Shown here in pieces: positions 2,318-29,813 of a stretch of DNA of 33,136 bases. The notes beneath the pieces are model-generated. The model searched no databases and was not told the origin of the DNA. It saw only the letters and a program-made list of their open reading frames with translations. Within the stretch, counting starts at the first letter, position 1. Every line of letters starts with the position of its first letter. Origin of the DNA: a virus (Duplodnaviria; Caudoviricetes); IMG/VR virus record IMGVR_UViG_3300044647_001298, positions 1 through 33,136 of that record; one strand, written 5' to 3'. Made by a program: the position numbers and the translations under genes.

Positions 2318-3502
2318 ATGCCGACACTTATCCCTGTGAAGGACGCGAACGGGAACACCGTGAACATGGTGTTGAACCCGGGGTACGACTCGCAGGATGA
2401 CATGATCAAGATGAAGAGCGTGCAGAAGAAGTGGCGCGACTCGTTCACGGTCAACGGGTCTCCTGACGCGACGAAGTGGGTGACGGATGTCGGCACGGGC
2501 GGCTCCGCGTCGAACTCAAGCGGCGCGCTGGTGATGGCGAACGGAACGACGAACGGATCGACCACGATGGTCACGAGCGTGGAGACATTCACAATCCCGT
2601 TCCGCGTGAGCATCGGCTTGACCCTGAGCCAGCGGATTGCGGGCGGAACCTTTTTCGTCGAGGCGATCAGCGTCGATCCCGTCACGCTTGCTCCCAACGG
2701 ACAGCACACCCTCGCGTGGGCGTTTGAGGGAACCAGCAACGCAACGCAGGGAATCTACGAGGTGCAGAACGGGGGTCTTGCGCGCCTGCGGTCGGCGCAG
2801 TCCGCGATCCCAACCACCGCAGGATCGGGCGTGTACGAACTGGAGGCGTTCGCCGACGAGGCGTGGTTCCACGGCGGCACGCTCGACGCGGCCACGGGAC
2901 GCGCGAACTCGTACCGCCGCCACCAGCAGATTCCCGACCCGAACGCGGTGTACAAGGTTCGGCTCCGCTGGACGAACAGCAGCGCACCCGCGTCACCGAC
3001 GAACGCGACGATCCAGTACCTCTCGGTGCAGGACTACGCCGAACTGACAGCCGAGATCACGGCGGGGCGCGGCAACTCGGTCGCTGGCAACGCGATGAAT
3101 GTCGTGGTTGTCTCGGCCCCGACTACCACCGTGACGGGAACGGTCACGGCGAACGAAGGAACGCCGGTCACGCCCTCCGTCCTGTTCCGCAACAGTACGG
3201 GCGACAACAACCTAGTCGCGGCCAAGGGTTCAGCCGGAACGCTCTACGGGTTCAGCGTGAACAACACCAACGGGGCGCTTCGATACCTCAAGTTGTACAA
3301 CAAGGCGACTGCGCCCGTACTCGCGACCGATGTCCCCGTGCTGGTCATACCGATCCCCGCGAACGGAACCGTGGCGCAGGACTTCAATGTCGGACTACGG
3401 TTCGCAACGGGAATCGCGATCGCGATGACCACGGGCGCTGCCGACAACGACACGGGAGCCGTGACGGCTGGTGAACACAAAATCGCGATCTCCTACATCT
3501 GA
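2318..3502 (+). CDS. Putative virion accessory/fibre protein (Thr/Gly/Ala-rich, predicted beta-sandwich domains)
   Basis: 394 aa; TTTVTGTVTA linker followed by a C-terminal domain (KGSAGTLYGF...RYLKLYNKATAP...GLRFATGIAIA) of a type common in phage structural proteins. Confidence 0.6.
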   Translation: MPTLIPVKDANGNTVNMVLNPGYDSQDDMIKMKSVQKKWRDSFTVNGSPDATKWVTDVGTGGSASNSSGALVMANGTTNGSTTMVTSVETFTIPFRVSIGLTLSQRIAGGTFFVEAISVDPVTLAPNGQHTLAWAFEGTSNATQGIYEVQNGGLARLRSAQSAIPTTAGSGVYELEAFADEAWFHGGTLDAATGRANSYRRHQQIPDPNAVYKVRLRWTNSSAPASPTNATIQYLSVQDYAELTAEITAGRGNSVAGNAMNVVVVSAPTTTVTGTVTANEGTPVTPSVLFRNSTGDNNLVAAKGSAGTLYGFSVNNTNGALRYLKLYNKATAPVLATDVPVLVIPIPANGTVAQDFNVGLRFATGIAIAMTTGAADNDTGAVTAGEHKIAISYI

Positions 3503-3509
3503 GCAGGCC

Positions 3510-3731
3510 ATGCCGCGCAACTACCGAGACGAGTACCTCAAGCATCAGTCCTCGACTTCCGCGAAGAAGGACAGGGCATCCCGCAACCGCGCGCGACGTG
3601 AGGCCGAGCGTTCGGGCCGCGTTCGCAAGGGCGACGGCAAGGACATCGACCACAAGAACGGCGACCCGCGCGACAACCGGAAGTCAAACCTGCGCGTGAC
3701 GAGCCGATCTTCAAACCGATCGAGGAAGTAA
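3510..3731 (+). CDS. Small HNH endonuclease
   Basis: 73 aa from ATG 3510; GDGKDIDHKNGDPRDNRKSNLRVTSRSSNRS is an H-N-N type beta-beta-alpha-Me motif. Confidence 0.85.
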   Translation: MPRNYRDEYLKHQSSTSAKKDRASRNRARREAERSGRVRKGDGKDIDHKNGDPRDNRKSNLRVTSRSSNRSRK

Positions 3732-4986: not shown

Positions 4987-5127
4987 ATGTACGGAACAAG
5001 CAAGAAGTCGGGAAACGCAAGCACCCGCCACGGTAAGGGCGGCGGCATGAATGGTGGCAAGGGCGGCGGCAAAGGCGGAGCAAAGAGCGGGGGTAAGAAG
5101 ACCAAGATGAAGGGCAAGGGCTGCTGA
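4987..5127 (+). CDS. 46-aa Gly/Lys-rich basic peptide MYGTSKKSGNASTRHGKGGGMNGGKGGGKGGAKSGGKKTKMKGKGC (not in ORF track)
   Basis: AGGAG SD at 4976-4980, ATG at 4987, stop overlaps portal ATG (TGATG). Confidence 0.75.
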   Translation: MYGTSKKSGNASTRHGKGGGMNGGKGGGKGGAKSGGKKTKMKGKGC

Positions 5128-6905
5128 TGCTCGATATGTCGTTCATGGCGATGCGGCGAGAGATCGAGAGCGCGGAAAAGTTCCGTGACGCTCACCTGTC
5201 ATCGCTGCGGACGATGGTCGAAAAGTACCACGGCCCGGGATATCGCGACGATCGCAACGATCCCGACACCGACGATCCCGAGAACTTCGGCCACGAGTAT
5301 GTGTCGCTGGTGCTGCCGCGCATCATCCACGACACGCCTAAGTTTCGGGTGAAGTTGGGCGAGCCGATGCTCGACCTGATGCTTGGGAAACGGCTTCAGA
5401 TCGCCGTGAACCGGTGGGCGCGCATCGTCAAGTTGCGCCGCACGCTGGAGCGTGTCGCGGTGGACATGATCTTCACCTACGGCGTGGCGCTGACGGTGAG
5501 CGAGCCGAGGCCGGAGGCGCGGCAGGTTGACGGCAAAGAGCCTTACCTTCCGCGCGTCTACCGCATCTCGCCCGATCGGTTCTTCATCGACCCCGCCGCG
5601 ACGAGCGTCGAGGACGCGAGGTTCATGGGCCATTGCTACGCGATGGACAAGAACGACCTTCTTGCGATGGCGAAGACCGACGAGAGTTGGGACATCGACG
5701 CGATCTTTGCGATCCCTTCGGGAACCGACATTGACAAGGTTCGCGATGATAACGGCCGCGATCTTGAGGATCGCAAGGAGTTCGCGGTCTACGAGATTTG
5801 GGTTCCGGAGGCCGACATCGCGGAGGCCGAGATTGCCGACGAACTGGCCGGGCCGGGACTGATCAACGGAACGATCTTCACGATCGTCAAGGGCCGGAAC
5901 GGTCAGTCCAAGTGGGACGGGTTCATCCGCGCGCCGCGACCGTACTTCGGGCCGAGAAACGGCCCGTACACCGTCTTCGGCGCGTACACCGTCCCCGACG
6001 ATCCGTACCCGCTGTCGCCGATGATCGCGATCCAATCGCAGAGCCAAGACCTCAACGCGCACCTGATCAGCCTGCGCGCAAGCGCGGCGGCGTACAAGCG
6101 GCTGATCATGGTTGATTCGCGGAACAGCAAGTTGGCGCAGGACTTGAAGGACAAGCCGCACGACTTCGTGATCGTCTCTGAGAACCTCGACAAGGAGAAG
6201 GTAGTCAACCTTGAGGTCGGCGGCATCACGCAGCAGCAGGTGCAGTATTCGCAGATCGCGCAGGACAGGCTCGACCGGGTGTCGGGCATCCATGACGCGA
6301 TGCGCGGCAACATCCAAGGCAGCGCGACCGCGACCGAGGTCGCCGTGGCCGAGTCGAGCGCGACGATGCGCATGGCCCACCTCAAGCGCCAGTTCCAAGA
6401 GGCGGTGGATGACATCGCCCGATCGGTGTTGTGGTTCATGTGGCACGATGACCGGGTGGCGTTCCCGCTCGGGCGCGAGGGCGCGGAGGCGCTGCTGGAG
6501 GCAAACCCCAAGTTCACCGGCGGCGTTCAGATGCCGGGCTGGGAAGACCTTGAGGTCGCGGTCGATGCGTACAGCATGGAGCGCGTGTCCGAGGCGCTCG
6601 TGCAGAAGCGCGCGATGGAACTGCTTCAGATCACCACCAGCGTGGCGCAGGGCATGATGACGATGCCGTTCATCAAGTGGCGCGAAATCCTGTCGGTGGT
6701 CGGTGACGCGCTCAACATGCCCCACTTGCCCGACATGATCGATCAGAACGCCATGCAGCAGATGGCGCAGGCATCGCAGGCGGCGGCAGTCGGCGGCATG
6801 CCGGGGCCGGCCAGCGGCCCACCGACCAACGCAATGGGCGAGCCGAGTCCGATACCCGCAAGCAGCCTAGCCGGCCTCCAAGCCGCCGCGAACAGGGCGA
6901 TGTGA
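5127..6905 (+). CDS. Portal (head-tail connector) protein
   Basis: 592 aa; position between terL and scaffold/capsid; RISPDRFFIDPAAT and SGIHDAMRG...TATE motifs typical of P22/podovirus-type portals; Q/M/P-rich tail. Confidence 0.9.
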   Translation: MLDMSFMAMRREIESAEKFRDAHLSSLRTMVEKYHGPGYRDDRNDPDTDDPENFGHEYVSLVLPRIIHDTPKFRVKLGEPMLDLMLGKRLQIAVNRWARIVKLRRTLERVAVDMIFTYGVALTVSEPRPEARQVDGKEPYLPRVYRISPDRFFIDPAATSVEDARFMGHCYAMDKNDLLAMAKTDESWDIDAIFAIPSGTDIDKVRDDNGRDLEDRKEFAVYEIWVPEADIAEAEIADELAGPGLINGTIFTIVKGRNGQSKWDGFIRAPRPYFGPRNGPYTVFGAYTVPDDPYPLSPMIAIQSQSQDLNAHLISLRASAAAYKRLIMVDSRNSKLAQDLKDKPHDFVIVSENLDKEKVVNLEVGGITQQQVQYSQIAQDRLDRVSGIHDAMRGNIQGSATATEVAVAESSATMRMAHLKRQFQEAVDDIARSVLWFMWHDDRVAFPLGREGAEALLEANPKFTGGVQMPGWEDLEVAVDAYSMERVSEALVQKRAMELLQITTSVAQGMMTMPFIKWREILSVVGDALNMPHLPDMIDQNAMQQMAQASQAAAVGGMPGPASGPPTNAMGEPSPIPASSLAGLQAAANRAM

Positions 6906-16571: not shown

Positions 16572-17787
16572 TCCGATGGAGACGGCAGAACCTGTGTCGC
16601 CCGAGATGGTCGCCGGCGGCTCTTACATGCCGCAGGAAGACGAGTTCGAAGCGCCGCCGCCACCCGAGCCGGGAATCGCAGACGAGCGCGCGCTTCGCGG
16701 ACGCGCGAGCGAGGTCAACGACTTCAGCCTGACCATAAGCGGAATCTCTGACGGCGATCCTCTCGGCATGGAGACATTTGACCTCGGGTTCTTCGAAGAC
16801 GGAACGCCGTCGATCACCATCAACGGCGCGAATGTTCCGATCCGGCACGAGCAATGGATGGCTCTGCTCACGCAGCGCAACAGGACGCGCGGCGAGATCA
16901 AGGCGCGCATGGAGTTTGAGTTCCAGCGCCGCAAGGCCAAGGACGGCATCAACCGCATCCTCGCCTCCGCTCCGAGCGTGCCTCCGCAACTGGGGGAACT
17001 GCTCCTCACGATCGCGGACATCAACCCCGAGGTCGCGCTAAATGAGACGCAGCAGTTGCTCGTGAGCATGTCCAAGGACAACGGACGGACGCAAATCGGC
17101 AAACTCTCGACGATGATTCAAGACACGGCCGTTGTTACCGAACGGCAGCGACTCGATAGCCCAATCGATGATCCGGTCACGGAGACGATCAACGGGAAGC
17201 AGTTCCCGATGTACGACAACAACGGCAAGCCCGTGGTTCGAACGACATCGCCGATCCGGAAGCGCATCGAGCAACTGTCGGCAGACCCGAAGGACAAGAA
17301 GAAGCAGAAGACCGCCTACGCGCTGAGCAACCTCAATGCTCTGTTCCCTCCGACCGGGATGAAGTCCGATCCGTCCGTGGGAGGCAAGCCTGTCGGCGCG
17401 TTCGACCTGATGCTTATGGCCGATGGCGGAGACACGGGAGAACTCTCCCGTTTCGACCTGCTCAGGCATCTCGCCTCGTACAGCGGAGACCTGTGGCCGT
17501 CATCGGTGGAGTGGATGGACACTCCGGTGTCATCCAACTTCGTTCCCGGCCGTCCCGCCGATACGAACGAGGTTGCGCGGTTCCGCGAGTACATAATGCG
17601 GCTGGACGAATGGGCATCGAAGGCGCTCAAGTGGGATCGCTCCGATTCTCGCGTCATTGACCTGTTCATCAATCAGGCCGTGATGAACAACCGCGTGATG
17701 TACAACCCGAACGCCCCGCAGTCCGGCAAGGCTGATCAGGGCAAGGCGACCGACGAAGAACTTGACATCACCGTGGATGTTGGCTAA
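16561..17787 (+). CDS. Putative internal virion protein
   Basis: 408 aa; GGAGG SD; stop overlaps the start of the 4008-aa gene. Confidence 0.6.
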   Translation: MPIDPMETAEPVSPEMVAGGSYMPQEDEFEAPPPPEPGIADERALRGRASEVNDFSLTISGISDGDPLGMETFDLGFFEDGTPSITINGANVPIRHEQWMALLTQRNRTRGEIKARMEFEFQRRKAKDGINRILASAPSVPPQLGELLLTIADINPEVALNETQQLLVSMSKDNGRTQIGKLSTMIQDTAVVTERQRLDSPIDDPVTETINGKQFPMYDNNGKPVVRTTSPIRKRIEQLSADPKDKKKQKTAYALSNLNALFPPTGMKSDPSVGGKPVGAFDLMLMADGGDTGELSRFDLLRHLASYSGDLWPSSVEWMDTPVSSNFVPGRPADTNEVARFREYIMRLDEWASKALKWDRSDSRVIDLFINQAVMNNRVMYNPNAPQSGKADQGKATDEELDITVDVG

Positions 17788-20700
17788 TGACCCAGTTGAA
17801 CCCACAGACTCAAATTGAGGCCATCCGCACCCGTGCCGCCGCGAAGGCGCGAGAGCGCATTGTGTCGCAGGGCATCAACTTGCAGAGCGACGATGCTGCC
17901 GCCGCGATGCAGGCGGCGCTCGACGGGGCAGAAGACAAGGCATGGAGTGCCGCACGGTACAAGGCGCTTGAGGGTCTGATGAAGCGCGGCATCCCGGGCG
18001 TGTCGATCGCAGGCGACGAAGCGGAACCCGACGAGCGCGGCAAGCCGTACACCATCGACGATGAACTCGATTCGTATTCCCAACTCGTGGCGGATCAGTT
18101 CGTCAAGGGAATGACACCCGTCACCTACGACGAGTGGAGCGCGAAAAAGCGGACGCTTCCCAAGGCGATGGCCGAGGGAACGGCCGGAGGGTTTCTGACC
18201 GCACTTGAAGGTGCTGTCGGAACTGCGTGGGCCGGCGCGGTCAATACGTGGGAAGAATACGGGTGGGACGGCATCAAGTGGCGTGACGAGGCTCCGACCG
18301 TGCAGGAGCGGATCGCGCAACTCAACAAGATCGAGTTGAACCGCCGCGAAGGTGCAGAGGCTACGCGCCTCATGCTGTCGCTCAAGTTCTCGGAGATGTT
18401 CGGAAGCGGAGATGTCGGAGACACGGTGGCAACTGGATTTGAACAGTATGCCGAGGAACTTGCTGGCCCTCCCGGACAACCTGTTCTGAAGAGCGAGCGT
18501 TACGGAGCGCCCGGAGGGGAATTCGGCGCAACATTCGTTGAGGAATCCGAAAACATCGGATCGGCACTCGGGTCGCTCCCGATGTCCGCGCCCTCCATGC
18601 TGGCTCCGAACAAGGCCGCGCGCGCCGTAGCAATGCTTCCGTTCGCGTTCTCGGGGTACGCAGACGCGAAGTCGGCGCGGTACGAACTTTGGAAGGAGCA
18701 GGTGCGGATGGCAGAGATGCTCGGAGTGTCTCCTCCTCCGCTGCCGTCCACCGGCGAGTTTGAAGCGTGGGGCGGAACTGGCATGGTCTTTGAGGTCGGT
18801 TCTGAGTTTGTCGGCGACACCGTGCAGGTAGGCGCTTTGAAGTTCTTCAGCGGCAAGCGTATTGGGCAAATGGGCGCTTCTCGGATCGGACAAGGACTTG
18901 TCGAGTTGCAGAAGAGCATGCTTCGCAGTCGTGGCGCTCTCGGCGCGTTGAAGAAGTACGGCGGTGGGGTAGCGGTAGGAGCAGTCACAGAAGGCTTGGA
19001 AGAAGTTGTCCCGCACGCCGGTATGGAAGTTCAAGATGTAATTACACAACAGATAAACCTGTGGAACGACAACCCCGAGTACTTCAACACCGATCGCGAC
19101 TTCTTCAGCGAGAACACTTGGCAGTCGTTCAAAGTCGGCGCATACGCCGGCGGCCTAATGTCGGGCGGATCGTCTGTCGCAAGCCCGTCCGCTTTCCGCG
19201 AGCGATCCGCGCAGCGCAAGGCGCGCAAGGAAGTCGCGAAGGGAACCGAGTTCGTAACCGAGACCTTGGTGCAGGCTCAGGAACAGGATGCCGCGCAGCG
19301 TGTCGGTCAGGCTGCAAATCCTCCGGAAGGTAAGAGAGCGATCGCAGAAGAGCGGTTCCGCAGGAATGTCCCTACAACGCGCAGCAGCGCGATGGCAGCG
19401 CACCATGTCGAGCAGATGGATGCCGGCAACCGGGCTGCCATGTTCGTCGATCCCGCCGACATGGACACAACCATCACGCCGGAGGTCAAGGAGCGGATGG
19501 TCGCGCTTGGCATCTCGACGAAGCCTGTCGGAACGGTGAACGGGAAGAATGTGTTCGTGGCGACCGGAACGGTCGATGCTGTGAAGGCGATGGTCAATAC
19601 GGGGAACTTCTCCGCGCTGACCGGAAGCCCGGTGTCGAACGATGGCAATCAGATGATGGGCGCGATCGTCCTCCGGGACAGCGCGGGTCGCATCGTCGAT
19701 GTCATGCCGTACTCAGACCCGGCGCAGATGTTCTCCGCTGCTCCATCGGTTGGAACGATGGCGCAGCAGAACGGTCTCACGATGGATGTCGTGAACCACG
19801 AGACGCAGCAGACCTACTCGGGGTTGATGGACGCGCTGTCCCGTCAGCAGGACGCGGATGCCGTGCAACTCGGCATCACTCGTCGAACCGACAAGCCGGC
19901 TCCCGCCAAGCAGACCAACCGTGGTGTCAAGGCTCTGCGTCTCGACATCGACAAGGCCGCAAAGGGAAGCAAGAACAAGAAGCGCGCCAAGGCATCAGAC
20001 CCGTTCACATCGCCATACCTGACTGCCGACGAGATCGGCGATGCGACGAATGGCGATGTGACGGTGACCACGGTTCTGACCAAGGTCAATGAAGACCAGT
20101 TGTCGGAAGGCGAGCGCAATCTATCGCGAACCACCACCGCCAACGCGACGATCCTTGACGGCAAGGTCATGTTCGTGATCAAGCAGAAGGACGGTTCGGT
20201 CAAGAAGGTCGAGAAGCCGATCCGTCTCGACGGCGCGTACCTTGCGCAGGCATCGCCTGACGGCGTGTTCCTCGTCAGGGACAACGGAACGGCGATGAAC
20301 TCGCGCTCCGCATTCGTCGTGGCGCTGCACGAGATGCGGCATCGGATTCTCTCGCGTTCGCGCTCCGGCGCTCAGTACTTCGCCAAGTTGCTGCAACTCG
20401 ACCCGGTCTACGCGATGCGCGGCGGCGCGCAGTACATGCGCGCCATGTACGGTGGAAAACTGTCCACGATGTCGGACGCTCAGGTCATCGCGTACTTTCG
20501 TGGCCTGCACGAGGCGGCGTATGCCGTGCATCAGGGAACGGCCACGGCCGAGCAGCAGCAGATGGTCTCCGAGAGCCGTGTCAATGCCAAGGGCGCTCCG
20601 GTAGGAACCCCGGGTTCTGCGCTTGCCGATGTCCGGCAGTTCTCCGAGGAGAGCGTGACCACGACCGCGAACCGGGCGATGGGTCAGACGATGACGATGG

Positions 20701-23700
20701 CCGCCGAGTGGGATGGCATCTACCGGGACGCGCAGGAGCGGTCGTTCCGGTCTTTCTCGCGGTGGATGGCGAACGCGCTCGTCAAGAACGGCTTCGTCGG
20801 CGCGGAGGCGCAGCAGGCGCTCTTCGAACTCCGGCAGCGGCTGGACGGCGTGCGCGAGGAAGAGGTCAAGGTTCATCGCAAGTTCAGCGACACGGTGTCG
20901 AACGCCGTCCGTCAGGACTTGGAGAAGGCCGAGCGCCGCCGTCAGGCGCGCGCCGCGCTCGCAGGGTCGCCCCAAGCCGGCGCTGCGCCGGCCTCAACGC
21001 CGGCCGCAGCAGCCCCGCCGGCGGCTTCCGTTCCTGCCCCCGCCCCAGCGCCCCCGCCTGCCTCGCCCGGGGGGGGAGGCGCTCCTGCGCCCACCGTGGC
21101 CCCCTCTATGCGCATGCCGGAACCTACCGGCGGCACGACGATCGGCGGCGACGATGAGAAGTTGCAGGCGGCGATGGCCGCCGTGCAGGCGGCTCAGGCC
21201 GCGCCGCCCGAGCAGCGCGCCGCGATGCTGGCCGATGCGGTCGGGATGCTGACGCAGATTGTTCCGGCGCTGACGCAGACCACCGCACAGTTGGCCCCGG
21301 GCAGCCGGGGAAGCCGGCCCCAGTTGCAGCCTCCCAGCACGCGGCAAATCCCGGCCGCGATGCGGGATGTCGTGCCTGCCCCGGCCGCCGAGCCTGCGGG
21401 AGCCGTCGAGGCCGCCCCGCCCGACTTGGAAGCCGCCGCGATCCGCCAGCGCAGCGTGCAGGGCGCGATGGCGATCATGCGCGGCGAGCGCCCGACAGCG
21501 CCCGTCCAGCCGGGTACGGTCGCGCGCATCGAGCGCGCGCGCACCCTGATGCAGGACGCGGACGAGGAAGTGCGCGGGTCGCTCCGGGAGCGTCCCGGCC
21601 GGCGCGAGGCCAACGACGATGTCCGATCCGCGCGGAACGAGTTCATGTCCGCCGCAGGCATCGAGCCTGAGCAGCGGATCGAGGACACCTACGCCGAAGT
21701 CGATCCCGACTTCGCGTACCGCCTTGCCGATTGGTTCGAATCGGCGAAGGTCAACTACGACGATCCCGAGATGCTGTCGGCGTACCGCCAGTTCGGCAAG
21801 GAGACGCTCGACCAGTACGAGTTCTTGCGCGAGCGCGGATTCGAAATGGTTCCGTGGGCAGGCAAGGGTCAGCCCTACGCCGACAGCGCGGACATGATCG
21901 AAGACCTGCGCGAGAACAAGCGGCTGTTCTACTACAAGACGAACAACGCCGCCGAGGTCAACTCGTTCGGTTCGAATCCCGAGGCGTACCAAGAGGCTCT
22001 CCGGCGGAACCCCCTGCTGGAGGACACCGGCATCGAGGTTCTCGACAGCGAGGGCAACCCGTACCGTCAGACCTACAACGATCTGTTCCGCGCCGTTCAC
22101 GACATCATGGGTCATGGCGCGGAGGGGTTCCAGTTCGGGCCGCGCGGAGAGGAGAATGCGTACCGCAGCCACGCCGTGATGTACTCGCCGATGGCTCGGC
22201 AGGCGATGGCGACCGAGACGCGCACTCAGAACTCGTGGGTGAACTTCGGGCCGAACCGGCGTAACTCGGACGGAACGGTGTGGGGTCAGGACGATCCGCG
22301 CTACGCGCCGTGGATGGAGCGTCTCAAGAACGGCGAGGGATACGCGGATCAAAAGCCCGTTCTCACGCCGCCCGAGTTCCTTGGGCTGTACGAGGCTCCG
22401 CAGCAGGCGCGCGCATCGCTGCGTCCGATCTCTCTCGCAGAGATGTCGCCGACGATGCGCGTGTGGAGCCGTGGCGCTGTTGCGGTTGATGACACGGGCA
22501 GTTTGCTCGCTCTCACTCACGGAACCAAGAAGCCGTTCGAAAGTTTCACCCCGTCAACTAGAGGCGCTTACGGCCCGGGCATCTACCTCGCCACCGAGAC
22601 CGACGAGGCAAATCGGTTCGCTGGAGAATCCGAAGGTTCGCAAGTCGTTCCCGTAGTGACGAACATAAAGAACCCGCTGGTTGTCGATGCAGGACGGGGA
22701 GAGCAGTTCGTTGCAAAGGCGCTCGACACGCTGGGCAGGAATTTCAACGACTTCGCTCTCGACAAAGACAATTCAATCGACACAGCATTGAATCAGGCGC
22801 TTCGTGCCGCTGGATATGACGGCGTTCATGTGAAGGCTCCGCGCGGTTACGACATCATGGATCGTTCGCGAGGAGACTACTGGGTTGCATGGGAACCGAA
22901 TCAGGTCAAGGGCTACTTCAACGAGAACCCGACCGCAGACCAGCGCATCATGTACTCGGCCGCAGAGCAGCCGGCCAAGAAGGCGCGCGCGCCGAAGGTC
23001 GTGACACCCGAGCAGGAGGAAGCAAATCGCGCCAAGAAGGCCAAGGCTGCTCAAGATCGCGCAGCGGCGCGAGTCGCGATGAAGAACGCGGAAGAAGCAC
23101 GGCGCACGATCTCAGGCGCTACGAAGATCAGCATCAGCGCCGAACCTACCGCGCAGCCGTTCGTGTCGGAGAACATCATCGTGTCCCGCATCCGCAAGGA
23201 GCCGGGATTCTCGCAGGAGATGGCGTACCGCCGGTCAAACGAACGAATCCGCGCCCTCATCGCGACCGACAGTTTTGCGGTTCAGTTGAACGAACTCATC
23301 TCCCGCATCGCTCCGAATATCACGAACAAGGTCGGGTTGCGCAACGCGATCAGCGAGGTTCTCGGCAACTACGCCGGCCGAACCGAAGAGGCGATGCGCA
23401 TCGAGATTCCCGGACTGACCCACGAGCAGAGCGTCGATGTCGGCCACCTTCTTGGATCGCTGCTGCTACAGGAAGCGGTCATCACCACGAGTCCGGCCAC
23501 GCCGAAGACCGATGTCGCCGAGCAGGGCTTGGCGGTCATGCTGTTTTCGCAGGACACGAAGCCGATGGAAGATTCGGCTCTTCGCTCGCTTCTCGGCGAT
23601 GCGGGTTCTATGCTCAACGGAGCGACTACGCACGAGAGCAATCGAGGCGTGTGGTCGGTGTGGAGCGACTACGAGGGAAACCCCGTAAGCCGCGAGGAAT

Positions 23701-26700
23701 TTGTCAAGCGTGCGACAGATGTGGCGAAGCGGCACGGCATGCTCGTGGACACCACGACCATCCGCAGCACCTACACGAAGATTGGAGATCGCGATGTCTT
23801 GGGAGCAGTTCAGACGAATCTGCGCGGAACAACAGGTTCCGGTGTCGGACAACCCGTGGTGGGCGAGTTCAATTCATGGGTGCAGCCTGCGGCCAGCATC
23901 GCAGAAGTCCTCCGCGACGAAGGGTTCGACATCGATGTCCGTGGGTGGACAAAGCAGGTCGGCGGAGCCAACGGCAAAGCCCTCGGAGATGCCCTCCTCG
24001 CCGAACTTGCCAAGCGAGAACGGCAGCGCAGGCACGGACTTGATCCCCGGCTCCTGACCACATTTGACGGAAGCATGCAGGGCATCGTCGCGGAGCCGAA
24101 GGTTCCCGCGTCCACCACATCCGCCAACGCGGAATCGTCGTTCCGCGAAGTCGATGCGCTGCTTGCGCGACACCCAGCGCCGTTCGAATCCGAGGATGCG
24201 TACAAAAGGTTCCTTGCCGATCTGTTCGGAGAGCGGACGATTCCGATCGTTCCGGTGCATCTGCTGAACAGGGTCAAGGACAACTTCGCCGGCATGCGCA
24301 AGGACATGTCGCTGCGCGAGGACGGCGGCCGTCTCACGCACAGCATGATCAACGACGCGATCCACGGGATGGAGATGGCGCAGCGCCTCCGCGCGCTGTA
24401 CGCATCGGGAGCCGTGCAGCCGAAGCACACGGTCGCGCTCGCGATGTGGGGATTCCTTTCGAAAGGAGTTTCGCCGTACATCCAAGAGAGCCTGTTCCTC
24501 GACATCGTGAACTTCAAGTCGAAGAAAGGTGTCACATACGGCGATTTCGTCGATATCGCAGTCAACGGCAACTGGAACAAGAAGACCGACACCGCCCGAT
24601 GGGTTTCGTTCATCAACGAGATGTTCAATTCGCTCGCATACGCGAAGACCGACGAGAACAACCGTCCGACTACCGATGACAAGGGCAATTCGATCGTCGT
24701 AATTGGCACGCCCGGGTCTTCCGCGAAGCACAACGCGAACGCATTCGGCAGGAACTTCCTCGCGAACATCGGCAAGCGCGTCACCATCGGCGACAAGACC
24801 ACGACCGGACTGATGCACTTCCACGGCGCTCTCGCCAATCCGAACACAACGGGCAAGCAGGTGCGCCGCACCTTCGCAAGCATCGGCGAGTCGCTCGGCA
24901 TCGACAACAAGGTCGTTTCGTTCGGATGCCTTGTCGCCGGAAAGACCGATGTCAGCGTGTACGACCGCGTCCGGGTTGGCGACCACTACAACCGTGACGG
25001 GAAGTACCCGAACGCATATGACGGCTTCACCATCGGATACCGCGTCTTCGCATACGGCGAACCGAAGGCCGACTTTGAGATTCCGCTGAACCTCAAGCCT
25101 GCGTCCGCAACGCCGCAGGGCTACAAGACCGCCTACGAGGATGCGCTAAAGAAGGCCGAGAAGACCGCAAAGCGCAACTTCAAGTCGATCAAGGAGGAGA
25201 AGGTCGCGGAACTTGCGCCGCTGGTGCAGCGGTTCGAAGCGTTGCCGACCACCGACGATGCGCGGAGGGACTTCATCGCGCGGCTCCTCAAGACCGGATA
25301 CCTCGATCCAAAGGACGAGTCGTACATTGATGTCGTTCCGGTAAAGGCTGGCGGACTTGCAAACCTGTTCAACGGCGCGCGCGGTCTTGCGCTGTACGAG
25401 GCGGTCGAACGGGCGATCGATCCGAACGCCGTGTTCAGCGAAATCGTGAAGAAGCGCCCCGACCTCAAGAAGCACGCGAATCACGGCGCTGAGCATTGGC
25501 TCAACTGGACGGGCGCGAGCGCGCAGGACGCGAGCCACGGCACGCTCGACGGCATGATCGACATGGTCTCCAAACGGTCGGAGACGATCGTCGGCGTAAA
25601 CGCGAAGGAGGGTCGGTACGACACCTACGCCTACGGCGCGCAGTACGGATATGTCGTTGAGGGCGACGAGACCGTCCCGCAGTACCTATACACCGCGAAC
25701 GGTGTCAAGTACAAGTTCACGCCAAAGCAGTTCACGGACTTCATCACGAAGGTGACGAAGTTCGATTGGGCTTCGGTCAACTGGAACAAGGCCGCAGGCA
25801 AGAAGCCGAAGTTCCTCGTCACGAAAGATTCCATTACGGGAGATGACCGAACCGCTCCGTGGTTCGACGATGCGATGTTCGGAGGCAAGGCGCAGGCGCA
25901 GATCGCCACGATCGCCGAAAGCACCGGCGTTCGCGCCAGCATGCGCGACATGAGCGACATCGATGCCGTGATGTCGTTCACGGATGCGCTGCACAAGTCG
26001 TTCACCGACGATCCGGCCATCAACGCCGTGACCGGTGTCGATCCGAACAATCCGCTGTCGATGGAGTTCGCTCGGCAAAACATCGCCGCTACCGACCACG
26101 AGCAGGCGTTCGGGCTGTACCAGCGCATGGTCGCACGGGCGTTCCCACGGCCGAGCGTTCCTCGATACACCCGGTACTTCGCGACCAACAACACGCTGAA
26201 CGGCCTCACGACCAACGACCTGTGGTTTCACGCTGGAGGGAGGCAATGGACGGTTCCGAACTACGACATCTCGCCGAACCAGTTCGGCCTGCACATCGGA
26301 ACATTCGACCAAGCGTCAACTTTCTTTGAGCGCGCGCTGGAGGAACAGCGTCGGCTTGTTAGAAACATCGGGTTGGCACAGGATGCGGGAGCGCGCGCAC
26401 GAAACGAAGCGGTGTATAAGGCGCACCAGCCGGTGATGTTCCCGCTCTACGCTCGCGCGTCGAAGCACATTGAAATTCCCGATCAGGTATCGTGGGAGCC
26501 GGAACTGATCATCAACGCGATGATGAGGATGGAACTGATCGATCCGGGTCAGCGCGATGACATGATGATGGAGATGTACCGCGAGATCATTGCGGAACAC
26601 GGAATCCCGCAGGGTACTGCGTTCTCAAGCCTAAACATCGACAACATGGTCGATGCGGCGAAGAACTGGTCGTGGAAAAACGACAAGGGAGTCCTTGACA

Positions 26701-29700
26701 TCGTCAAAATTGATGACCACATCCGCATGTCAGCAAACCGGTGGCTCAAGGAGTACTTCCGCGATCAAGGCATTGAGTCGGTCGTGTATCAGAACTGGAT
26801 CGAGGGTAAGGATTTGTCCCAGTTCAGCCGGGAGGAGAAGTGGGGTCGCATCGAGACCGATGCGCAGCGCGAGCATCGAATCGCATGGGACAAACGCACG
26901 TCATTGGCGATGAAGTGGTTGCTGTCAAATTCCAAGGCAAGCGAGAAAGAGAAGTACGCCAAGGAAAAAGAGATTCTTGGCTCTGCCCCGAGCGCGATCG
27001 TGTGGAACACGGGTCAGGTCAAGAGCGCGAGCGTTGACGATGTCGGCTTCCGCATCATCGATCCCGACATCCGCGCGTCGATCAGGCTTGAGTCCCCGGC
27101 GATCGTCAAGTTGAACCCGATGGTGTTCGAAGACGGTTCCGAGACCCGCATGTCGATGCGCGAGGGTCTCCCCGGCATTTCCGACCGCGCCACGCTTGAG
27201 TTCATCGACAAGTTCGACCCGCTTCGCAGGTACGGCGAGATCGCCGAGCGCGCGCTGGGCGGAAACCTTCCCGACATCGCGAACCCGTACCTTGGCGCGC
27301 GCACGCTTGTCGGCCGTCTTGGATCGATGCAGCAGAACGCGAACCGCGTGTACGCCGACATGCTCCGGGACATGGCCGAAAACAACATCTCGCTGGCGGA
27401 CATGGACGAGTTCCTCACCGCGCAGCACGCGATCAACGGCGGCAACGCCTACATCGCTGGTATCAATCCCCGGTTCCCTGACGGCGGCACGGGCATGTTC
27501 ACCGCCGATGCGCAGCAGGTGATCGCTCGCGCTCAGGCGGCCGGCCGGTACGGAGACATGAACCGCATCGCGGAGGAGTGGCGCGAACTGCTGCGCGCCG
27601 GACTCGCTCAGCGCCGTGACGCTGGCCTTGTCACGCAGGAGACCTACAACATCCTCACAAACCGGTACACCCACTATGTGCCGCTGCGAGGAGCGCCAGC
27701 GCGTCCGTTCGACGAACTCTTTGAGGACTACGACTCGGGCGAGGTGTTCGGTCGCGGCATGTCCACTCAGGGTCGCGGCATGCCCCAGCGGCTCGGCCGT
27801 CAAAGCCAAGCCGAAGGCGTGACCTCGCAGGTCGGTTTTATCCACGAGGACACGATGCGCCGCGTTGCGCGCAACGAGATCGGTCAGCGGTTCCTGCGGC
27901 TCGTACTTGCGGTCAACGACCCCGGGATGGCGACCGTAATCACTCCAAACCCGACCACAAACGCGCTCGTCAATGTCCCGGCAGCGCCCGGCCGGCCGGC
28001 TCGTCGCGAGGTGCGCGCGATTTACGATGCCAACTGGATGAACGATCCTCGGAACTTCGGCGTGTACGTGAACGCCCCCGTCGAGATCAACGGCCACCAG
28101 TTCGAACCCGGCGACCTCGTAGTTATCCGCCTCAACAACCCGCTGCTTGCCACGGCCATGAACGCTCCGAATGTGCAGTTGAACGCGCTGGAGCGGGGTC
28201 TGCGGCACGCCAACAACGCTTGGCGGTTCGTCACAACGGGCATGGGCAACCCGACCTTCGCCCCGGTCAACCTCGTGCGGGACATCGGCGCGGGAACAAT
28301 CAACAACGCGGCCGCGCACGGGTTGCGGGACACCGGGCAGATGCTCCGGCGCTACCCGCGCTCGTTCATGCGCGTGTTCATGGACGCTTGGCGAGACCCG
28401 ACGAACCCGACCGGGTCGTACCGCGACTTTGTCGAGGCCGGCGGCGACCAGTTGTACTGGCGGCCAAACGACCTCGACACAAAGAACACCGACTTCGATG
28501 CGCTCGCTGAGCGCGTACAGCGCCGAGACCCGAACGACCGCTCGCTCGCTCGCGCGCTTCTCGGTTGGTATCCGGCGTTCTTTACGGCCGCAGAGACGGC
28601 GACCCGTGTCGCGCAGTACGAGCAGCGGAGGTACGCAGGAGCGTCACGAGAGCAGGCTGCGCTTGCGGCTCGCGACATCACCGTGGACTTCGCAAAGGGC
28701 GGCCGCCGCAAGGCTGGACTCAACACCTACTACATGTTCCTCAACGCAAGCCTTCAAGGCAGCGTCAATGTGGCGAGGGCAATTAGGCGCGCGGCGGCGT
28801 TTGCGCCGGCGCTCGTGACGTTCGGCGCGGTGACGGCCATGCTTGGACGCGCGATGTCGGGAGAGGACGATGAGACCGAGGAATCGCTGTGGGACGCTCT
28901 GCCCGATTGGGAGAAGGCGGCCAACATTGTCCTGTTCGATCCGTTCGGAAGCGGAAAGCACATCAAGATTCCGCTTCCATACGGGTACTCGACCTTCTTC
29001 AGCGCAGGAGTCCGCATGGTCGATGCGGCCTTCGGCAAGAAGACCGCAGGCGATGCGGTGGCAGGCATCGTGACGGACGCGCTCAACTCCTTCAATCCGT
29101 TCGGTGGATCGGGCATCAAGTCCGGTGTCGGCAATGTCCTCGCGGCGTTCACGCCGACGATGGCGCGTCCGATCGCGGAACTCGGACTCAATCAGAACTT
29201 CATGGGCAGGCCGATCTACCCGAGCGCGATCGGCCGGCAGGAGAAGGCCGATGCCTATTCGTACTTCTCAGGCACGCCCGAGTTCTACACCGACACCGCG
29301 AGAATCCTCAACGACTCGACGGGTGGAGACATGTTCGAACCCGGCATAATCCACATGTCGCCGAACACGATGCAGTACCTCGTCGGCTACTACCTCTCGG
29401 GTGCTGGACGCACGGTCGATCGGCTCGCCAAGATGGCGTACAGCGCCGAACCGATCGACATGTCGGACATCCCGATGGTGCGTTCGTTCGTCGGTGACGC
29501 TCGCAGCGACACCCGTGCGCTCTCGGAGCGGTTCAACGCGATCGCATCGCGCACGCTGCCCGATGTGAACCGGATGGAGGCGCTGCGCGATCCCCGGGTC
29601 GATGCAGACATCCGCTCCGGAATCGCTGAGCGCGGAGTGTCGGAGGAGAACATCGCGATTGGACGCGCCGTGCAGCAGGCCGACAAGGAAATTCGCGGAA

Positions 29701-29813
29701 TCAACAAGGCGCTCCGCACCGCCAACCCCGAGCAGCGGCAGCGGCTCATCGAGGCTCGCGAGCGTGCGATGAAACGGGTGATTCGCACCAACAACCGCTT
29801 GACTTCCGATTGA
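17787..29813 (+). CDS. Giant polyvalent internal virion (ejection) protein: zincin HExxH, HDxxGH domain, two ART-like domains, HhH-glycosylase-like domain, C-terminal LPD38-like region
   Basis: 4008 aa; ALHEMRH (20328), AVHDIMGH (22098), THGT...GPGIYL...GYDGV...NQVK (22518), GIDNKVVSF...VYDR (24897), WFHAG...GLHIGT...GQVKS (26229), PDWEK...IKIPLPYG...NQNFMGRPI (28900-29220). Confidence 0.85.
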   Translation: MTQLNPQTQIEAIRTRAAAKARERIVSQGINLQSDDAAAAMQAALDGAEDKAWSAARYKALEGLMKRGIPGVSIAGDEAEPDERGKPYTIDDELDSYSQLVADQFVKGMTPVTYDEWSAKKRTLPKAMAEGTAGGFLTALEGAVGTAWAGAVNTWEEYGWDGIKWRDEAPTVQERIAQLNKIELNRREGAEATRLMLSLKFSEMFGSGDVGDTVATGFEQYAEELAGPPGQPVLKSERYGAPGGEFGATFVEESENIGSALGSLPMSAPSMLAPNKAARAVAMLPFAFSGYADAKSARYELWKEQVRMAEMLGVSPPPLPSTGEFEAWGGTGMVFEVGSEFVGDTVQVGALKFFSGKRIGQMGASRIGQGLVELQKSMLRSRGALGALKKYGGGVAVGAVTEGLEEVVPHAGMEVQDVITQQINLWNDNPEYFNTDRDFFSENTWQSFKVGAYAGGLMSGGSSVASPSAFRERSAQRKARKEVAKGTEFVTETLVQAQEQDAAQRVGQAANPPEGKRAIAEERFRRNVPTTRSSAMAAHHVEQMDAGNRAAMFVDPADMDTTITPEVKERMVALGISTKPVGTVNGKNVFVATGTVDAVKAMVNTGNFSALTGSPVSNDGNQMMGAIVLRDSAGRIVDVMPYSDPAQMFSAAPSVGTMAQQNGLTMDVVNHETQQTYSGLMDALSRQQDADAVQLGITRRTDKPAPAKQTNRGVKALRLDIDKAAKGSKNKKRAKASDPFTSPYLTADEIGDATNGDVTVTTVLTKVNEDQLSEGERNLSRTTTANATILDGKVMFVIKQKDGSVKKVEKPIRLDGAYLAQASPDGVFLVRDNGTAMNSRSAFVVALHEMRHRILSRSRSGAQYFAKLLQLDPVYAMRGGAQYMRAMYGGKLSTMSDAQVIAYFRGLHEAAYAVHQGTATAEQQQMVSESRVNAKGAPVGTPGSALADVRQFSEESVTTTANRAMGQTMTMAAEWDGIYRDAQERSFRSFSRWMANALVKNGFVGAEAQQALFELRQRLDGVREEEVKVHRKFSDTVSNAVRQDLEKAERRRQARAALAGSPQAGAAPASTPAAAAPPAASVPAPAPAPPPASPGGGGAPAPTVAPSMRMPEPTGGTTIGGDDEKLQAAMAAVQAAQAAPPEQRAAMLADAVGMLTQIVPALTQTTAQLAPGSRGSRPQLQPPSTRQIPAAMRDVVPAPAAEPAGAVEAAPPDLEAAAIRQRSVQGAMAIMRGERPTAPVQPGTVARIERARTLMQDADEEVRGSLRERPGRREANDDVRSARNEFMSAAGIEPEQRIEDTYAEVDPDFAYRLADWFESAKVNYDDPEMLSAYRQFGKETLDQYEFLRERGFEMVPWAGKGQPYADSADMIEDLRENKRLFYYKTNNAAEVNSFGSNPEAYQEALRRNPLLEDTGIEVLDSEGNPYRQTYNDLFRAVHDIMGHGAEGFQFGPRGEENAYRSHAVMYSPMARQAMATETRTQNSWVNFGPNRRNSDGTVWGQDDPRYAPWMERLKNGEGYADQKPVLTPPEFLGLYEAPQQARASLRPISLAEMSPTMRVWSRGAVAVDDTGSLLALTHGTKKPFESFTPSTRGAYGPGIYLATETDEANRFAGESEGSQVVPVVTNIKNPLVVDAGRGEQFVAKALDTLGRNFNDFALDKDNSIDTALNQALRAAGYDGVHVKAPRGYDIMDRSRGDYWVAWEPNQVKGYFNENPTADQRIMYSAAEQPAKKARAPKVVTPEQEEANRAKKAKAAQDRAAARVAMKNAEEARRTISGATKISISAEPTAQPFVSENIIVSRIRKEPGFSQEMAYRRSNERIRALIATDSFAVQLNELISRIAPNITNKVGLRNAISEVLGNYAGRTEEAMRIEIPGLTHEQSVDVGHLLGSLLLQEAVITTSPATPKTDVAEQGLAVMLFSQDTKPMEDSALRSLLGDAGSMLNGATTHESNRGVWSVWSDYEGNPVSREEFVKRATDVAKRHGMLVDTTTIRSTYTKIGDRDVLGAVQTNLRGTTGSGVGQPVVGEFNSWVQPAASIAEVLRDEGFDIDVRGWTKQVGGANGKALGDALLAELAKRERQRRHGLDPRLLTTFDGSMQGIVAEPKVPASTTSANAESSFREVDALLARHPAPFESEDAYKRFLADLFGERTIPIVPVHLLNRVKDNFAGMRKDMSLREDGGRLTHSMINDAIHGMEMAQRLRALYASGAVQPKHTVALAMWGFLSKGVSPYIQESLFLDIVNFKSKKGVTYGDFVDIAVNGNWNKKTDTARWVSFINEMFNSLAYAKTDENNRPTTDDKGNSIVVIGTPGSSAKHNANAFGRNFLANIGKRVTIGDKTTTGLMHFHGALANPNTTGKQVRRTFASIGESLGIDNKVVSFGCLVAGKTDVSVYDRVRVGDHYNRDGKYPNAYDGFTIGYRVFAYGEPKADFEIPLNLKPASATPQGYKTAYEDALKKAEKTAKRNFKSIKEEKVAELAPLVQRFEALPTTDDARRDFIARLLKTGYLDPKDESYIDVVPVKAGGLANLFNGARGLALYEAVERAIDPNAVFSEIVKKRPDLKKHANHGAEHWLNWTGASAQDASHGTLDGMIDMVSKRSETIVGVNAKEGRYDTYAYGAQYGYVVEGDETVPQYLYTANGVKYKFTPKQFTDFITKVTKFDWASVNWNKAAGKKPKFLVTKDSITGDDRTAPWFDDAMFGGKAQAQIATIAESTGVRASMRDMSDIDAVMSFTDALHKSFTDDPAINAVTGVDPNNPLSMEFARQNIAATDHEQAFGLYQRMVARAFPRPSVPRYTRYFATNNTLNGLTTNDLWFHAGGRQWTVPNYDISPNQFGLHIGTFDQASTFFERALEEQRRLVRNIGLAQDAGARARNEAVYKAHQPVMFPLYARASKHIEIPDQVSWEPELIINAMMRMELIDPGQRDDMMMEMYREIIAEHGIPQGTAFSSLNIDNMVDAAKNWSWKNDKGVLDIVKIDDHIRMSANRWLKEYFRDQGIESVVYQNWIEGKDLSQFSREEKWGRIETDAQREHRIAWDKRTSLAMKWLLSNSKASEKEKYAKEKEILGSAPSAIVWNTGQVKSASVDDVGFRIIDPDIRASIRLESPAIVKLNPMVFEDGSETRMSMREGLPGISDRATLEFIDKFDPLRRYGEIAERALGGNLPDIANPYLGARTLVGRLGSMQQNANRVYADMLRDMAENNISLADMDEFLTAQHAINGGNAYIAGINPRFPDGGTGMFTADAQQVIARAQAAGRYGDMNRIAEEWRELLRAGLAQRRDAGLVTQETYNILTNRYTHYVPLRGAPARPFDELFEDYDSGEVFGRGMSTQGRGMPQRLGRQSQAEGVTSQVGFIHEDTMRRVARNEIGQRFLRLVLAVNDPGMATVITPNPTTNALVNVPAAPGRPARREVRAIYDANWMNDPRNFGVYVNAPVEINGHQFEPGDLVVIRLNNPLLATAMNAPNVQLNALERGLRHANNAWRFVTTGMGNPTFAPVNLVRDIGAGTINNAAAHGLRDTGQMLRRYPRSFMRVFMDAWRDPTNPTGSYRDFVEAGGDQLYWRPNDLDTKNTDFDALAERVQRRDPNDRSLARALLGWYPAFFTAAETATRVAQYEQRRYAGASREQAALAARDITVDFAKGGRRKAGLNTYYMFLNASLQGSVNVARAIRRAAAFAPALVTFGAVTAMLGRAMSGEDDETEESLWDALPDWEKAANIVLFDPFGSGKHIKIPLPYGYSTFFSAGVRMVDAAFGKKTAGDAVAGIVTDALNSFNPFGGSGIKSGVGNVLAAFTPTMARPIAELGLNQNFMGRPIYPSAIGRQEKADAYSYFSGTPEFYTDTARILNDSTGGDMFEPGIIHMSPNTMQYLVGYYLSGAGRTVDRLAKMAYSAEPIDMSDIPMVRSFVGDARSDTRALSERFNAIASRTLPDVNRMEALRDPRVDADIRSGIAERGVSEENIAIGRAVQQADKEIRGINKALRTANPEQRQRLIEARERAMKRVIRTNNRLTSD

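Follow-up and report, generated by a model that had tools for sequence, protein, structure and literature searches.

The window, as we call the whole 33,136-nucleotide stretch of virus record IMGVR_UViG_3300044647_001298 analysed here, carries on its plus strand (17787–29813) an open reading frame (ORF) encoding a protein of 4008 amino acids. It is the final gene of a structural module, and terminase, portal, major head, adaptor and fibre genes lie ahead of it on the same strand. Pfam matches to LPD38 and ART-PolyVal, together with matches to PHROG 14770, 616 and 10691, identify the product as a giant polyvalent protein of the LPD38 type. Going by its relatives, among which LPD38 proteins are present in virions, it is probably an internal virion or ejection protein, packaged and injected by an uncultured short-tailed phage. 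Its organisation is that described for polyvalent proteins, with disparate domains (ART-PolyVal, LPD38, and two carrying HDxxGH and HExxH) in a single large chain encoded beside terminase and portal genes. A short peptide motif repeated along this chain delimits modules that are reshuffled as whole units among its relatives, and we consider here whether the motif is a site at which the chain might be cut by its own predicted metallopeptidase.

The original prediction listed five copies of R-x-S-[LMI]-R and two near matches, and took them to mark domain boundaries. Every position proved correct, and conservation in relatives makes both near matches true members. Site 1 (APSMR, 21099–21113, plus strand as are all the features of this protein) lies within a Pro/Ala linker and reads AFSLR, QSMR or YSLR in relatives, with the Ser kept in 15 of 17 aligned proteins and the Arg in 14. 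Site 2 (RGSLR, 21573–21587) keeps its Ser in 17/17 and its Arg in 15/17. Site 3 (RASLR, 22410–22424) coincides with a module swap junction located blind at residue 1542, and site 4 (RIMYSAA, 22944–22964), a degenerate copy that appears as IMYSQR, IMYSVR, MASMR or MGSRR in relatives, with another at residue 1726. At sites 5 (RASMR, 25932–25946), 6 (RASIR, 27072–27086) and 7 (RMSMR, 27147–27161), both Ser and Arg are present in all 17 proteins (residues 2718/2720, 3098/3100 and 3123/3125) despite drift at the adjacent positions; the orthologous Ser codon at site 5 may be TCG, AGT or AGC. Site 7 begins the C-terminal chassis, and a copy is found here in 54/54 relatives, the similarity of distant members often beginning no more than a few residues from its Ser. 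KDMSLR at residue 2174 was considered as a further copy and rejected, as its Ser is not conserved in the aligned relatives.

Within the window protein the fixed pattern occurs five times against 0.18 expected, and none of 5000 shuffled sequences contained four or more copies. Enrichment over shuffled sequence thus held for the fixed pattern, but did not survive correction for having looked elsewhere: the word is the rarest four-letter gapped word of the protein, and an equally rare word appeared in 8 of 40 block shuffles. As the pattern was chosen after looking, the window protein alone is insufficient and the case rests on its relatives.

Used as a query, the C-terminal 876 residues found 162 proteins, 120 of which are listed; the 50 close relatives among these 120 (P0002–P0051) are 41–76% identical over that region, and with four full-length members from a search with the peptidase region (P0242–P0245) they make up our 54 relatives. 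They share an N-terminal chassis (approximately residues 220–1200) and a C-terminal chassis (residues 3123–4008; 27162–29813, with LPD38 at residues 3702–3889, nucleotides 28890–29453) and diverge between. Among the 120 listed proteins, 22 of the 23 closest relatives carry the strict pattern at least twice; it is present at all in 7 of the following 27 and 2 of the 70 distant LPD38 proteins. The leading Arg of R-x-S-[LMI]-R is specific to one lineage, and the true motif is wider. It is better written [FYMA]-[SA]-[LMIVQR]-R, of which R-x-S-[LMI]-R is the window lineage’s form, and 183 distinct instances gave a weight matrix of the form [EDG][AISP][MRLQ]-[FYMA]-[SA]-[MLQRVI]-R-[ERPD]. Conservation is carried by the Ser and the Arg. 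The word [FYM]S[LIVMQ]R is found 154 times in cargo regions against 9.7 expected (about 16-fold) and shows no enrichment in the chassis (3 against 5.8 in the N-terminal part, 1 against 5.5 in the C-terminal part). A family-wide word count was dropped as a test of the motif, being confounded by relatedness.

Further evidence comes from the points at which cargo is exchanged. Swap junctions were located without reference to the motif, as positions where homology to one relative stops and homology to another starts, using a two-state segmentation because BLAST high-scoring segment pair ends and maximal segments bridged swaps. The cargo regions gave 87 junctions, 62 of them non-redundant. S.R was the top word of 6,695 at these junctions (29/62 against 7.1 expected), and the broad motif lay within 12 residues of 34/62, compared with 5.9% of random windows; the other 28 had no copy within that distance, and the strict pattern was near only five. 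Because the junctions share descent, and because the broad expression was written after they had been seen, the associated p-values overstate independence and are optimistic.

When 51 proteins were cut at motif matches (with the weakly scoring window sites at residues 1107, 1723 and 3097 added by hand), the 188 resulting segments fell into 32 clusters. Segments straddling two of another protein’s made up 49 of 3394 pairs (1.4%), against 2.5–6.6% with the cuts displaced by 60 or 90 residues. The modules occur in many orders, M0-M3-M1-M2 in the window and M0-M5-M1-M2, M10-M3-M0-M12, M3-M10-M0-M12, M6-M4-M8 and more in others. In the four held-out proteins (P0242–P0245) the motif again lies at module borders, the module ends used being themselves motif-cut. 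The proposal made from the window’s sequence, that the motif defines swappable slots between conserved N- and C-terminal chassis, is directly supported, and the motif delimits modules that are reshuffled as whole units. Doubled motifs 8–26 residues apart are common, as at 27072–27161 in the window and in P0026, P0033, P0037, P0048, P0049 and P0243, as if a module had been lost through recombination between two sites and a short spacer left behind.

In the window protein the first of these modules, M0 (21588–22409; phrog_3170), is an HDxxGH...GEE domain that is zincin-like by motif only; H[DE]xxGH is found in 32 of the 54 relatives, and a profile search of the PDB gave no match. In five unrelated proteins (P0134, P0147, P0149, P0165 and P0219) the domain forms the protein’s end, which falls 13–18 residues past an ADQK-like anchor and before the RASLR position. 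M3 (22425–22943) is an ART-PolyVal ADP-ribosyltransferase (ART) domain that matches PF18760 with an E-value of 2.9e-19 and 70.6 bits, above the curated cut-off of 31.2. Its structural matches are weak, to an anti-CRISPR protein, 6kyf (E-value 2e-3), which we take to be AcrIF11, and to PARP catalytic domains; with a combined model of M0 and M3, every fold-search match fell on the ART part. A match to cyanophage A4 chain 9k3a_B was dropped, the root mean square deviation being 26 Å and the available part of the corresponding paper (PMC12002296) making no mention of an ADP-ribosyltransferase. M1 (22959–25931), of about 990 residues and represented by 29 segments, moves as a single unit and has no usable Pfam, PDB or Atlas match. 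The same searches did not confirm the glycosylase-like region that had been proposed here; a stretch near residues 2371–2395 may resemble a helix-hairpin-helix glycosylase. M2 (25947–27071) had been called a second ART domain. It has no match in Pfam, PF18760 included, and the case for a divergent ART-like domain comes from family profiles, which match ART-type regions in L033, L032, L037 and P0056. A further HExxH domain, M10, travels as cargo in P0028 (around residue 1294) and P0244 (residue 1527).

The placing of the motif at domain boundaries is supported by the homologues and, for three copies, by an AlphaFold2 model of residues 1230–1780, with a mean predicted local distance difference test score (pLDDT) of 83 and a predicted template modelling score (pTM) of 0.59. 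Sites 2, 3 and 4 occupy model residues 34–38, 313–317 and 491–497, and the stretches with pLDDT below 50 include residues 30–37, 309–314 and 495–507, confidence being low around site 4 from residue 481 to 507. In this model the three copies lie outside folded domains, in or at the edge of low-confidence linkers. A conserved site at the joints and outside the folded domains is what a self-processing polyprotein would have.

The motif could act as peptide or as DNA. Orthologous motif Ser residues are encoded by TCG, TCC, TCT, AGC and AGT, switching between the TCN and AGY families, and synonymous identity at motif Ser and Arg codons (22/39 and 16/42) shows no surplus over that elsewhere (310/664 and 530/1307), so the original view that conservation is at the protein level stands. 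L029 by itself uses AGC, TCG and TCC for its motif Ser residues. There are also signs of exchange at the DNA level. L001 and L002, whose chassis DNA is 90% identical, differ by a swapped module with both crossovers inside motif codons; of 237 codons compared between paralogous motif copies, 114 are shared where 72.6 would be expected, a count that includes near-duplicate loci; and there is a mild bias towards TCG at motif Ser (24/34, against 16/53 for context-matched Ser). Together the codon patterns suggest selection on the peptide, with the motif codons likely serving as homology for crossovers.

The form of the motif also changes between lineages. In a quickly built tree of 53 peptidase domains, the window clade uses R-[MA]-S-x-R and Y-S-Q-R, and several non-homologous joints of one subclade carry M-F-A-[MR]-R. 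The form thus changes in concert across non-homologous joints and tracks the peptidase tree. Agreement between motifs was greater within than between proteins at positions -1 (0.49 against 0.28), 0 (0.36 against 0.24) and +1 (0.90 against 0.77), although relatedness explains part of this. Unrelated giant proteins, in a set of 16 proteins and patterns picked by eye, contain the same modules bordered by other repeated words: K[AF]S[LI][RN] six times in L033, [LM][FY]AL four times in L032, L[AS]ARR five times in L037, FMPE six times in P0127 and [KR]LAR seven times in P0240, with 0.01–0.13 expected for each. Cargo bordered by a chain’s own word (FMPE, FRPE, FSP, KFSLR, LAARR or KLAR) was noted in L032, L033, L034, L037, L038, P0127, P0139, P0142, P0152, P0155, P0176 and P0240. 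When 113 non-redundant distant proteins were tested blind, each for its own repeated words, 30 scored above their shuffles, against 16 expected. This signal is weak, and generality outside the window protein’s family therefore rests on the hand-picked cases. Two further giant proteins caught our attention: that of a cultured Vibrio phage with LPD38 (L041:6272-15664) has six [QML]FS[QRN] words, possibly its own junction word, and lake-type viral contigs (L012–L024) carry a module related to residues 1671–2208 of P0033 at the C-terminus of another giant protein, with AMSLRQG and RF[AS]K upstream.

The N-terminal chassis contains a candidate zincin-like metallopeptidase (20067–20936), with H848-E849-x-x-H852 at 20328–20342 and E955 at 20649. 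All four residues are invariant in the 49 members that have the region (51 were aligned, the other two being fragments), and two have HExxxH. The model of this domain, with a pTM of 0.44, shows strands, then the HExxH helix, then E955 on a later helix, an order of elements that fits a zincin; a conserved HExxH helix with a downstream Glu helix is the arrangement expected of a gluzincin. A peptidase search over all representatives gave 20 matches, 16 of them strong and within the giant-protein family, and no relative of 509–2000 residues was found. The signature also agrees with the metallopeptidase (MPTase) domain as described in the available text of PMC5512222.

These observations are best explained by a chassis-and-cargo polyprotein, in which the hydrophobic-Ser-x-Arg motif at the joints is likely the cut site of the predicted zincin in the N-terminal chassis. 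We put the probability that the motif is such an autoproteolytic site at 0.5. Zincins tend to cut beside a bulky hydrophobic residue. The chain would travel in the head with the DNA and, there or once injected, be divided into separate effectors, freeing the HDxxGH domain, the two ART-type domains and the 990-residue M1 from the chassis; were all seven sites cut, the products would be of approximately 1106, 158, 279, 180, 994, 380, 25 and 886 residues. New modules most likely enter by recombination at motif codons, and working cargo would be released only from fusions that kept the site. Packaging, protease activity of the HExxH domain, its action on the motif, the bond cut and the timing are all inferred. 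The general idea is not new, as autoprocessing by the MPTase domains of polyvalent proteins has already been proposed (Iyer 2017, PMC5512222).

Several results weigh against this reading. A fold search with the peptidase model found no zincin match, an outcome that carries no weight as the model is too poor, and a Pfam search of the domain found no match either. A look-alike of the motif, DPVYAMRGG, lies inside the peptidase itself (residues 872–880; 20400–20426), between the HExxH and the third ligand. It matches the weight matrix in most members, with D872 and P873 in 49/49 and A876 and R878 in 47/49, and is helical in the model. Site 4 has lost its Arg in the window, and the junction p-values are optimistic. 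In 120 other HDxxGH proteins, many of which may be fragments, having an HExxH (24 proteins) did not go with greater enrichment of junction-like words than lacking one (96). The N4 virion RNA polymerase, which also bears an HExxH domain, is packaged unprocessed according to the available part of PMC5512222 and was assayed full-length in that of PMC13434306. Separately, we note that the look-alike generally reads DPxYAMRGG, and DPxFSLRAG in P0050, P0051 and P0245, and may be a pseudo-substrate or self-inactivation site.

What else could place such a motif at every joint? It could be a docking signal that is never cut, each copy binding a partner (the chassis, a smaller ejection protein, a scaffold or a host chaperone) that packs, orders or unfolds the modules for passage through the tail. 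This is compatible with every positional and conservation result, with the packaging of HExxH-bearing giant proteins whole (reported in the available text of PMC5512222), and with the look-alike helix in the chassis, which hints at a structural use. A tag need not, however, occupy every joint or take on a new sequence once a module is transferred to a different chassis, doubled sites are common, and the putative catalytic Glu849 is as invariant as the metal ligands; we regard docking as rather unlikely. Cutting by another protease, whether a phage enzyme encoded elsewhere in the genome, the HDxxGH cargo domain or a host protease, seems to us less probable again. The record’s estimated completeness is 80%, which leaves room for such a gene; repeated junction words occur in proteins without an HExxH (FMPE six times in P0127, FSP seven times in P0176); and P1 DarA is cut by a prohead protease, as the available part of PMC12810830 describes. 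The portal’s N-terminus, MSFMAMRRE (5127–5160), gives one weak match to the motif profile, with a score of 9.7. Yet the HDxxGH is absent from 22 of the 54 relatives, all of which keep the junction motif, so the M0 domain, present in only 32, cannot be the general enzyme. The scaffold candidate, the capsid and the three ejection-type ORFs upstream of the giant gene have no match to the profile, which speaks against one protease acting across the head, and scans of 19 and 14 window ORFs turned up no recognisable prohead protease. The pairing of one site in capsid or scaffold with a protease gene, which would be expected of prohead-protease cargo, is therefore not seen in this roughly 80% complete genome, the weak portal match aside.

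It is very unlikely that the motif is a recombination scar alone, a short DNA homology used for module swaps whose peptide has no function. The L001/L002 crossovers, the shared paralogous codons and the TCG bias are all what a scar would leave, but a scar would not explain why orthologous Ser codons switch so freely, why synonymous identity at the motif is close to background, why L029 mixes AGC, TCG and TCC, or why Ser and Arg persist in 17/17 proteins at three joints whose neighbouring residues drift. Finally, a chance pattern picked after the event, which the 8 of 40 single-protein shuffles might have allowed, is refuted by conservation and junction enrichment in the relatives; the restriction of enrichment to cargo, the module shuffling, the held-out proteins, the invariant Ser and Arg, and the copy before the C-terminal chassis in 54/54 all point the same way.

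If autoproteolysis is the correct explanation, a broader picture suggests itself, which we offer tentatively. Each lineage’s embedded zincin and a private junction word of four to five residues might co-evolve in a plug-and-play effector system, the word being both cut site and crossover point and imported modules being recoded to the word of the host chain. Were this so, there would be a general, readable cleavage code from which the mature effectors encoded by many giant phage genes could be predicted.

A few features of the setting complete the description. An upstream 408-residue ORF ends in a stop codon that shares bases with the start codon of the giant gene (TAATG, 17784–17789), suggesting translational coupling. 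Downstream of the terminase, a small ORF at 3471–3731 with what resembles an HNH motif is set between two accessory genes. No relative was found in GTDB genomes, and a tRNA search found none.

The hypothesis that polyvalent proteins process themselves dates from 2017, and in the literature covered we found no named substrate site; a search for a junction motif in these proteins, which took in titles and the openings of abstracts and had most subscription journals outside its coverage, likewise found none. The window family offers a defined candidate for such a site, an invariant enzyme candidate and naturally varying forms of the site in different lineages, which make the hypothesis testable. 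Whatever the mechanism, the motif shows where domains begin and end in about 30 segment clusters, mostly lacking a Pfam name, that are candidate injected anti-defence effectors.

Among characterised proteins, phi24B gp47 (bioRxiv 10.64898/2026.04.10.717836) and gp69 of the Bcep22-like phage JC1 (PMC9144972) share the type of C-terminal chassis (a 25–29% identity class) and are in virions by proteomics. Their cargo differs from that of the window, the available parts of these papers do not report processing, and the phi24B authors assign the gp47 metallopeptidase to peptidoglycan (bioRxiv 10.64898/2026.04.10.717836). Three cultured relatives gave no match to the window family’s motif profile. 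The N4 virion RNA polymerase resembles the window protein in being ejected, in its size of about 3500 residues and in its HExxH domain, but it has a single polymerase cargo and is handled full-length, and the available text of PMC13434306 mentions no junction motif.

Prohead-protease systems, exemplified by P1 DarA (PMC12810830) and also including T4 gp21 and phiKZ gp175, cut short repeated sites in packaged proteins. There a separate serine protease acts on capsid, scaffold and propeptides, whereas the window motif occurs just at the joints between cargo in a single chain and is absent from the capsid and scaffold candidate. Polyproteins made by RNA viruses of eukaryotes, an analogy drawn in the available part of PMC5512222, similarly combine one chain, an embedded peptidase and repeated sites between domains; their enzymes and domains are unrelated, and the window family also exchanges modules between genomes at its sites. 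The polyvalent proteins of Iyer 2017 (PMC5512222) share with the window a giant multidomain protein in the structural module, ART-PolyVal, LPD38 and HExxH...E, and there the release of domains by an embedded peptidase is proposed, with no junction or cleavage motif named in the text available. To this known class of protein the window family adds a real, conserved junction code with module shuffling observed directly: the sequence of a site, its position at the swap points and its recoding from lineage to lineage.

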